A DNA stretch of 64,000 bases from positions 68,460-132,459 of the IMG/VR virus record IMGVR_UViG_3300021431_000080; one strand, written 5' to 3'. How positions within the stretch are numbered: the first letter of the stretch is position 1; each line of letters opens with the position of its first letter. Source of the stretch: a virus (taxonomy: Duplodnaviria > Heunggongvirae > Uroviricota > Caudoviricetes). The notes below the pieces were generated by a model. The model was not told the DNA's origin, did no database searches, and worked only from the letters and a program-made list of their open reading frames with translations. Below, in pieces: positions 24,761 to 24,915 of this stretch. The position numbers and the translations under genes were made by a program.

Positions 24761-24915
24761 TGCCGAGTAGCTCAGAGGCAGAGCACCTGACTGATACAGA
24801 GTGGTTCACTGGGACGAACCTTTTAGATTGGACGGGAGAATGGACTCACCAGACGTTCGAAGCGTCACCAATCTACTTAATCAGGGGGTCGAGATATCGT
24901 AATTCTCCTCGGCAG
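24761..24915 (+). tRNA. tRNA-Ile(GAT)-like gene interrupted by an 83-nt insert after the anticodon loop
   Basis: 5' part TGCCGAG-TA-GCTC-AGAGGCA-GAGC-A-CCTGA-CTGATAC at 24761-24797. 3' part A-TCAGG...CTCGGCA at 24880-24914, with a 7/7 acceptor. Insert 24798-24880 opens with AGAGTGGTTCACTGGGACGAAC and contains the minihelix AGATTGG...GACGTTCGAAGCGTC-CCAATCT. Confidence 0.45.

Follow-up and report, generated by a model that had tools for sequence, protein, structure and literature searches.

To our knowledge, the only well-established tRNA introns of the bacterial world are self-splicing group I introns. The intron of cyanobacterial tRNA-Leu(UAA) lies between nt 34 and 35. Group I introns have also been described in the anticodon loops of tRNA-Asn and tRNA-Asp of Patescibacteria (PMC13011429). 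Introns of another kind were found in the Lak megaphages by Devoto et al. (2019; PMC6784885), who called them "enigmatic" and remarked that the intron "may encode a tRNA" and has no Rfam match. More recently, tRNA introns that "could encode another tRNA" were reported in a study of 262 alternatively coded jumbo phages (PMC13037316, 2026). Both papers are without an architecture rule or a mechanism, and the literature searched offered no proposed mechanism for these phage tRNA introns.

Here we analyze an 83-nt insert in a tRNA gene of a phage, together with three further interrupted tRNA genes from the same window, i.e. the whole 64,000-nt stretch of DNA that was analyzed. Like the bacterial group I introns, the insert lies inside the anticodon, and the intron of the window tRNA-Leu(UAA) gene occupies the same 34/35 site as the cyanobacterial one. 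Group I introns are 200 nt or more in length, whereas the phage introns have 76–117 nt, lack a P1–P9 core, end in C and not in G, and need no U at the end of exon 1. A group I intron was rejected for the 83-nt insert, which ends in C and gave no Rfam match at E ≤ 5. The introns of the Lak phages share with it the anticodon-loop site in a phage tRNA, the WUA start, a 5′ hairpin, a tRNA-like domain, the N73-C end and the existence of intron-less alleles. The phages themselves differ, as Lak genomes are about 540 kb with 26% GC, and the window phage is represented by a 286-kb contig with 42% GC in the window. The family is thus already described in Lak and other jumbo phages, and the Asn and Arg introns of the window represent a variant of it. 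What is new is the mini-tRNA in fixed register that ends every member and a tail that matches the phage's own tRNA genes; together, these turn an open question of mechanism into one that can be tested at the bench.

Boundaries and Identity of the Interrupted Gene

ARAGORN, run with introns allowed, called a tRNA-Asn(gtt) gene at 24761–24916 on the + strand with an 83-nt intron. This agrees with an earlier reading made from the sequence only, which had noticed an insert of this length and flanks that rebuild a 7/7 acceptor helix (TGCCGAG/CTCGGCA) and an anticodon stem (CCTGA/TCAGG). An insert in a 7-nt loop fits several registers, each with a different anticodon, and comparative data were used to fix the register. 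The resulting rule is that the insert stops two nt past its minihelix (N73, then C). It is based on two tRNA-Ala paralogs of the genome L076, one with and one without the insert, on an uninterrupted L144 tRNA-Lys gene orthologous to an interrupted L055 gene, and on a Lak-B2 Phe allele without the intron. Applied unchanged, the rule gave a canonical tRNA with a 7-nt loop in 19/19 genes, with anticodons that fit the tRNA bodies (G73 in 7/7 Asn genes, G3:U70 in Ala, class II for Leu/Tyr). The features of the gene are as follows.

24761..24793, + strand: exon 1 of tRNA-Asn(GUU), from ARAGORN with introns (spliced product tRNA-Asn(gtt))
24761–24767, 24770–24784 and 24786–24790, + strand: acceptor 5′ strand, D-arm and anticodon-stem 5′ strand of exon 1
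24791–24793, + strand: loop nucleotides C32 U33 G34
24794..24876, + strand: intron, 83 nt, between nt 34 and 35, from the boundary rule
24877..24916, + strand: exon 2, with U35 U36 A37 A38 at 24877–24880
24881–24885, 24891–24907 and 24908–24914, + strand: anticodon-stem 3′ strand (followed by the variable loop), T-arm and acceptor 3′ strand of exon 2
24915 and 24916, + strand: G73 and C74, end of exon 2

The spliced anticodon loop reads CUGUUAA, which makes the product tRNA-Asn(GUU), and the discriminator is G73, an Asn identity feature. An ortholog in L055 (2224–2380) has the same unusual D-arm and T-arm and also splices to CUGUUAA, with its insert one nt further 3′. In L003 and L004, which are strain variants of this phage, a tRNA-Asn(gtt) gene that has no insert occupies the identical locus, with the same flanks. 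When the spliced Asn genes from six phages were taken together with two uninterrupted ones (8 Asn genes), 16 of the 21 cloverleaf pairs were compensatory, including pairs that span the intron, and G73 was invariant. The covariation across the intron argues that selection maintains the Asn exons as a tRNA. Among the ARAGORN-called genes of the window, Asn, Tyr, Arg(UCU) and Leu(UAA) have no uninterrupted copy. By these comparisons of sequence, the gene at 24761–24916 is identified as an interrupted tRNA-Asn(GUU) gene with a genuine intervening sequence.

The sequence-only reading had taken the gene for an Ile(GAT)-like tRNA gene, with the insert at 24798–24880 and position 37/38, and had offered a paralog or a regulated isoacceptor as possible explanations. 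CTGATAC can indeed be read as a 7-nt loop with the anticodon GAT, and an intact tRNA-Ile(GAT) gene does lie at 28635 (ARAGORN). An Ile(GAU) tRNA would show GAU after splicing together with A73; the gene has G73 at 24915, and the rule, which holds throughout the family, gives GUU. The limits therefore move four nt upstream, into the anticodon (34/35). Moreover, the allele in L003/L004 is Asn(gtt), and the L055 ortholog would become a different isotype under the Ile register. We regard the Ile version as hardly credible. The suggestion that a mobile insert had caught a paralog fares better in its first half, since insert-less alleles exist and mobility is reasonable, than in its second, as the gene is no Ile paralog.

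Standard tools mis-assign the anticodons of such genes (Ile for Asn, Lys for Arg, and "Tyr" for Asn in Lak), which affects what can be inferred on recoding or on the supply of codons by phages. The gene published as the intron-containing Lak "tRNA-Tyr(GTA)" (Devoto et al., 2019, Table S6) is, by the N73-C rule, tRNA-Asn(GTT) with G73. Run in eukaryote mode, tRNAscan forces the intron to position 37/38.

The Asn gene has the T-loop AUCGUAA (24896–24902), in which U54:A58 is swapped to A54:U58; many phages share the Asn tRNA scaffold with the usual UUCGAAA loop. Scans with exon sequence (GTAGCTCAGAGGCAGAGCA and the odd T-arm) were rejected as a probe for the family, as the matches listed represented a very common phage tRNA scaffold.

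Structure of the Intron and of Its Relatives in the Window

The Asn intron consists of a 5′ module and a tRNA-like domain, as listed below.

24794..24802, + strand: 5′ single-stranded segment AUACAGAGU, with the W-U-A start common to the family
24803..24820, + strand: hairpin 1, D-arm-like, GGUUC-ACUGGGAC-GAACC, from the MFE fold
24821..24824, + strand: linker UUUU
24825..24874, + strand: tRNA-like domain, from the fixed-register parse (7/7 acceptor, 4/5 T-stem)
24825–24831, 24832–24850 and 24868–24874, + strand: acceptor 5′ strand, GG-containing connector hairpin and acceptor 3′ strand of the tRNA-like domain
24851–24867, + strand: intron T-arm AGACG-UUCGAAG-CGUCA
24875..24876, + strand: discriminator-like A and terminal C (N73-C), end of the intron

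The minihelix AGATTGG...CCAATCT reported earlier is present and is joined by a T-arm. The domain has a 12-bp stack of acceptor and T-stem, the universal T-arm nucleotides and a GG as partner for the elbow. The 5′ splice site lies 31 nt upstream of +1 of this mini-tRNA, and the 3′ end of the intron coincides with N73-C. The 9-mer AUACAGAGU also opens the introns of L055, L076, L144 and L276. Hairpin 1 is supported by a compensatory change, in that its closing pair is G-C in the Asn intron (GGUUC/GAACC) and U-A in the window Arg intron (UGUUC/GAACA).

With respect to the Lak-type introns, the Asn intron has the anticodon-loop site, a canonical tRNA upon removal, the AUA start followed by a hairpin, the tRNA-like domain in fixed register and the AC end. 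It departs from them in the hexaloop and linker, which are ACUGGGAC and UUUU vs. ARUAAA and AAAUY. In the window Asn and Arg introns the D-arm-like hairpin replaces the A-rich hexaloop and AAAUC linker, and this version was absent from all other genomes examined. We conclude that the Asn intron belongs, as a variant, to the family of tRNA introns that was first reported from the Lak megaphages.

An acceptor stem, a D-like element and a T-arm without an anticodon arm are also the make-up of tmRNA and of the Y RNA YrlA, and the window encodes both Ro60 and a tmRNA. tmRNA and YrlA are free-standing RNAs and the phage mini-tRNAs are inserts in tRNA genes; there was no Rfam match to YrlA or tmRNA on the introns.

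The other interrupted genes are the following; the Leu and Tyr genes were seen via ARAGORN with introns and Rfam.

30185..30340, + strand: tRNA-Arg(UCU), sister gene; 83-nt intron at 30219–30301 with an Asn-type 5′ module and an unrelated tRNA-like domain
44517..44674, + strand: tRNA-Leu(UAA); 76-nt intron at 44552–44627 with the classic 5′ module GAGUAAAC...AAAUC
21624..21824, + strand: tRNA-Tyr(GUA); 117-nt intron at 21661–21777 with the classic 5′ module and a long tRNA-like domain

The Arg gene is the partner that had been described as Lys-like; the same boundary rule makes it Arg(UCU). Its insert does share the 5′ motif and the length of 83 nt, the equal length being coincidental. The motif recurs at 30223, giving two matches in the window with up to three mismatches allowed, where none is expected. 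The two inserts are identical at 24 of the first 27 nt and at 22/56 (39%) over the rest. The Leu gene is matched by the Rfam tRNA model over 157 nt with 46 bits. The Leu and Tyr introns carry the A-rich hexaloop and the AAAUY linker, and the Asn and Arg introns do not.

Conservation of the Intron Family Across Phages

Two pattern scans, one for a pair of T-loops at close distance and one for GAGTAAAC with two T-loops after it, recovered relatives from IMG/VR and metagenome contigs. The insert family that had been surmised was thereby found in other genomes (L055, L076, L144, the Lak phages and about 15 metagenome contigs). A set of about 21 curated introns was parsed in fixed register from the 3′ end; this parse and a trimmed alignment, with no covariance model, replaced a MAFFT alignment of whole introns that misaligned the acceptor 5′ strand. 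Read 3′ to 5′, all introns (21/21) show C, N73, a 7-nt acceptor 3′ strand and a 5-bp T-stem with a UUCGAWU loop, and further upstream a perfectly complementary 7-nt acceptor 5′ strand. The last nucleotide is C in 21/21. The introns of Lak A1 "Tyr", Phe and Thr and of Lak A2 Gly all fit this parse. In the trimmed alignment 97.9% of the cells pair and 11/12 pairs are compensatory, vs. at most 49% in slid controls; the acceptor half of this covariation test is biased, as the 5′ strand was picked as the best complement, and the T-stem half is unbiased. G53, U54, C56 and C61 of the mini-tRNA are invariant, and the connector contains GG in 20/20 members (11.6 expected), which is what a D-loop/T-loop elbow needs.

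The 5′ module is 24–34 nt long with a short covarying hairpin. The introns start with W (15 A, 5 T), then U (20/20) and A (19/20), and in most members an A-rich hexaloop (ARUAAA) closes the hairpin and AAAUY comes after it. The splice position varies, lying after nt 34, 35 or 36. The idea that the intron 5′ end serves as a guide by pairing with an exon or a mini-tRNA strand was discarded, as such pairing is not conserved between members.

A search for the family pattern in 185,579 bacterial and archaeal species genomes gave 6 matches, all of them chance or tandem repeats. In IMG/VR, exact searches for the 5′ motif of the Asn and Arg introns and for GAGTAAAC..AAATCG..CTGYAT returned nothing or only chance matches in coding DNA. 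BLAST of the region against GenBank phages matched the neighboring tRNA-Gly only. The neighboring 430-aa protein has almost no homologs, and no relatives were recovered by synteny.

Intron Ends and the Proposed Route of Excision

The tail of the intron copies the 3′-end style of each phage's own tRNA genes. In the window, 32/35 tRNA genes have C74, 19 end in N73-CAA and only one encodes CCA; the genes of L055, L076, L144 and the Lak contigs likewise have C74 without CCA, and their introns end in N73-C. In L224, L335 and L338 the genes encode CCA, and the introns run from mini-tRNA +1 to position 76. In L107, where the genes are without C74, the intron runs from +1 to N73. The introns of these last four genomes are without the 5′ module, and their exons join to a canonical 7-nt loop with a fitting anticodon. 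The loci with such simple introns are given below.

L224, c[361-514]: simple mini-tRNA intron
L335, 8296-8432: simple mini-tRNA intron
L338, c[8758-8897]: simple mini-tRNA intron
L379, 1299-1438: simple mini-tRNA intron
L107, c[325-444]: simple mini-tRNA intron

These simple introns, in which the insert is an exact mini-tRNA from +1 to the encoded 3′ end, interrupt genes for tRNA-Arg, Lys, Thr and Asn. The alanine minihelix signature, G3:U70 with ACCA, is found in the L335 insert.

Embedded tRNA-like folds direct RNase P and RNase Z cuts at their own ends. This is seen in tRNA punctuation (mitochondrial transcripts, the MALAT1 mascRNA, the MHV68 tRNA-miRNA), and the ends of the four introns without a 5′ module match those of punctuation exactly. 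Such ends would result if RNase P and a tRNA 3′ endonuclease carried out the excision. The phage case differs from punctuation in that the flanks would have to be religated into a working tRNA, and the window family carries the extra 5′ module. The intron ends suggest that the tRNA-trimming enzymes of the cell may help to excise it. Since the 3′ end of the intron coincides with that of its mini-tRNA (both ends do so only in L224, L335, L338 and L107) and the tail tracks the tRNA genes, we infer excision by proteins, namely tRNA end-processing enzymes together with an RNA ligase. RNase P and the tRNA 3′ endonuclease leave 3′-OH and 5′-phosphate ends, which would suit an ATP-dependent RNA ligase.

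In the scheme that we propose for the Asn gene, the pre-tRNA would be cut by proteins and not by itself. An RNase Z-type tRNA 3′-end endonuclease would cut after C74 of the mini-tRNA, which frees exon 2, RNase P would recognize the 5′ end of the mini-tRNA, a further cut at the N/WUA junction would free exon 1, and an RNA ligase would reseal the anticodon loop to give tRNA-Asn. The expected spliced junction is CCUGACUG joined to UUAAUCAGG, and a spliced read across it should contain GAGCACCUGACUG followed directly by UUAAUCAGGGGGUC. The further cut is needed because the 5′ module of 31 nt would stay attached to exon 1 if only RNase P and RNase Z acted. In the window family, only the 3′ site fits an RNase P/RNase Z scheme, and the textbook RNase Z site is after N73, not after C74. 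In Lak-A1 there are genes for a ligase of the T4 Rnl2 type and for a CCA-adding enzyme, and the window encodes RNA-repair-type HAD_SAK_2 and metallophosphoesterase domains. Pfam and PHROGs searches of about 50 window ORFs revealed no RNA ligase, RtcB, RNase Z, RNase P or CCA-adding enzyme.

Our favored reading, which we hold with slightly more belief than doubt, is that the insert is a genuine tRNA-Asn(GUU) intron and a variant of the Lak family, which would be excised by proteins at the mini-tRNA, followed by ligation, and which is probably part of a mobile cassette. More tentatively, and with doubt outweighing belief, the family may represent a third kind of tRNA splicing, in which a tRNA-mimic intron would be excised by RNase P and an RNase Z-type enzyme and a ligase would reseal the tRNA; for the Lak-type family this takes one more cut. 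If so, a single gene would give rise to a tRNA and possibly also to another small RNA that resembles a tRNA.

Alternative Explanations of the Insert

The insert might instead be a small self-splicing or self-cleaving RNA, with the three-way junction of anticodon stem, hairpin 1 and mini-tRNA helix as a catalytic core that cuts one or both junctions, the exons being joined by a ligase or by the RNA itself. Such a core would account for splice sites that are set by the intron and not by the position in the tRNA loop (nt 34, 35 or 36), for the set of conserved unpaired nucleotides (WUA, the ARUAAA loop, AAAUY and the terminal C) and for the lack of a nameable protein for the 5′ cut. However, the Asn and Arg introns of the window lack the conserved loops, and those of L224, L335, L338 and L107 lack the 5′ module altogether. 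The introns matched none of the ribozyme and intron families of Rfam, group I included, and none of the covariance models of hammerhead, HDV-like/theta, twister, pistol or hatchet. In the T-arm exactly those nucleotides are kept that are universal in tRNAs, and the tail goes with that of the tRNA genes in each phage; a catalytic core fits these features less well than recognition by tRNA enzymes does. We therefore find a self-cleaving RNA rather improbable. Still much less probable is an intron of the archaeal/eukaryotic type, with a bulge-helix-bulge, a splicing endonuclease and joining by RtcB. Archaeal tRNA introns are known from variable positions and RtcB is common in bacteria, which, with the anticodon-loop location, would agree with this type. 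The folds and the parse, however, do not allow a bulge-helix-bulge: a 7-bp helix internal to the intron ends 2 nt before the 3′ site, and an intron hairpin follows the 5′ site. The context is bacterial (a tmRNA and Bacteroidota-type promoters), and domain scans of the window ORFs showed no EndA-like protein.

It is also conceivable, though unlikely, that splicing does not take place at all. The tRNA gene would then be inactivated by a mobile tRNA-derived insert, or a mini-tRNA released by RNase P/Z would be the real product, with the host tRNA merely carrying it. Mini-tRNAs excised in this way would have tRNA-like ends, and the L335 intron has both G3:U70 and ACCA. The strains L003 and L004 have a different, intact Asn gene at the locus; as the entire gene is exchanged in these strains, the interrupted copy is dispensable and could be decaying. 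The odd T-loop AUCGUAA points in the same direction, but the change from U54:A58 to A54:U58 keeps the pair. Against an inactive gene, a single rule gives a canonical 7-nt loop and a fitting anticodon in 19/19 genes, the exon halves covary across the intron, and the interrupted genes supply exactly the isoacceptors that are missing among the uninterrupted genes of the window.

Alleles, Neighboring HNH Genes and Probable Mobility

Alleles or paralogs without the insert were found for Asn (L003, L004), Ala (L076), Lys (L144) and Phe (Lak-B2). At the Asn locus of L003 (3371–3444) and L004, the place of the interrupted gene is taken by another tRNA-Asn gene that has no insert, and the flanks are identical except at a small number of single positions, including the base that immediately precedes the gene. 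The strains differ by the swap of a whole-gene cassette, not by a simple gain or loss of the intron. The nearest endonuclease gene is the following.

23687..24517, + strand: free-standing HNH endonuclease gene (Pfam HNH), 244 nt upstream of the Asn gene

Homologs of this protein were found by tblastn in L055, L144, L263, L271, L272, L276, L277 and L281. Homologs of the window HNH proteins adjoin interrupted tRNAs in most loci of the family, and in L055, L144, L263 and L271 they lie 67–87 nt downstream. Both the intron-containing and the intron-less allele have the HNH gene, which hence does not co-segregate with the intron. The recurrence of HNH genes next to interrupted tRNAs suggests mobility, as an association only. 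From the alleles, the interrupted gene probably behaves as a mobile cassette at the DNA level, and the neighboring HNH endonucleases perhaps help its mobility, again by association only.

In collaborative homing, introns are mobilized together with free-standing homing endonucleases (T-even phages, the cyanophage psbA intron). The present loci are similar in having nearby HNH genes and coexisting intron-containing and intron-less alleles. They differ in that the whole gene and not the intron alone was swapped in the window phage, and in that the link to HNH genes is an association only.

HNH or GIY-YIG genes lie beside interrupted tRNAs in unrelated phages, namely at 23687–24517, 40454–41095 and 34461–35390 in the window, at 4108–4653 in L055 and at 4436–4705 in L144.

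Genomic Context

ARAGORN found 35 tRNA genes and a tmRNA in the window, all on the + strand between 21 and 45 kb. Neighbors of the array include DnaK, TnpB, pieces of a family-B polymerase, Ro60/TROVE, an RNA-repair-type HAD domain and three endonucleases, two of them HNH and one GIY-YIG. Promoter-like repeats contain the motif TAnnTTTG, which we take to be the Bacteroidota promoter motif. One protein of the window is also found on a contig of 286,399 bp and on others that, judged from accession names, apparently derive from the rumen of sheep and cow. The window phage is a jumbo phage.

A tRNA(CTA) of amber-suppressor type is located at 26055–26126 inside the array. It suggests TAG recoding, and it probably places the window phage in the alternatively coded jumbo phage group. 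The complete tmRNA (35898–36240, tag GNNTYRLAA) also lies inside the array. Three tRNAs have an A34 anticodon, Phe(aaa) at 23127–23200, Pro(agg) at 26259–26331 and Arg(acg) at 41115–41187; A34 in Phe(aaa) and Pro(agg) is unusual for bacteria. Tandem tRNA genes (21000–45000) are separated by gaps of only 3–4 nt.

Five tRNA-like genes with a perfect 7-bp acceptor and a T-arm were missed by ARAGORN (22051–22127, 22642–22779, 33543–33686, 40263–40351 and 34315–34400). Two of them are 138–144 nt long, so that other inserts are possible, and one is a sub-threshold tRNA-Sec-like match with 37 bits.

A Ro60/TROVE-vWA protein is encoded at 41805–43448, with partial tRNA-like elements upstream (Rfam tRNA matches at 41324–41389 and 41642–41703). 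The region 41100–43448 looks like a phage Ro60 with a Y-RNA-like partner. In L287, a Ro60 that is 60% identical to that of the window adjoins an interrupted tRNA. Further genes of the window are listed below.

3781–4977: TnpB/IS605 OrfB
7734–8720: AAA ATPase with an intein-like segment
49045–49938: Acb3-like CBASS inhibitor
10887–11360: RNA-repair-type HAD_SAK_2
43520–44131: metallophosphoesterase, next to the tRNAs
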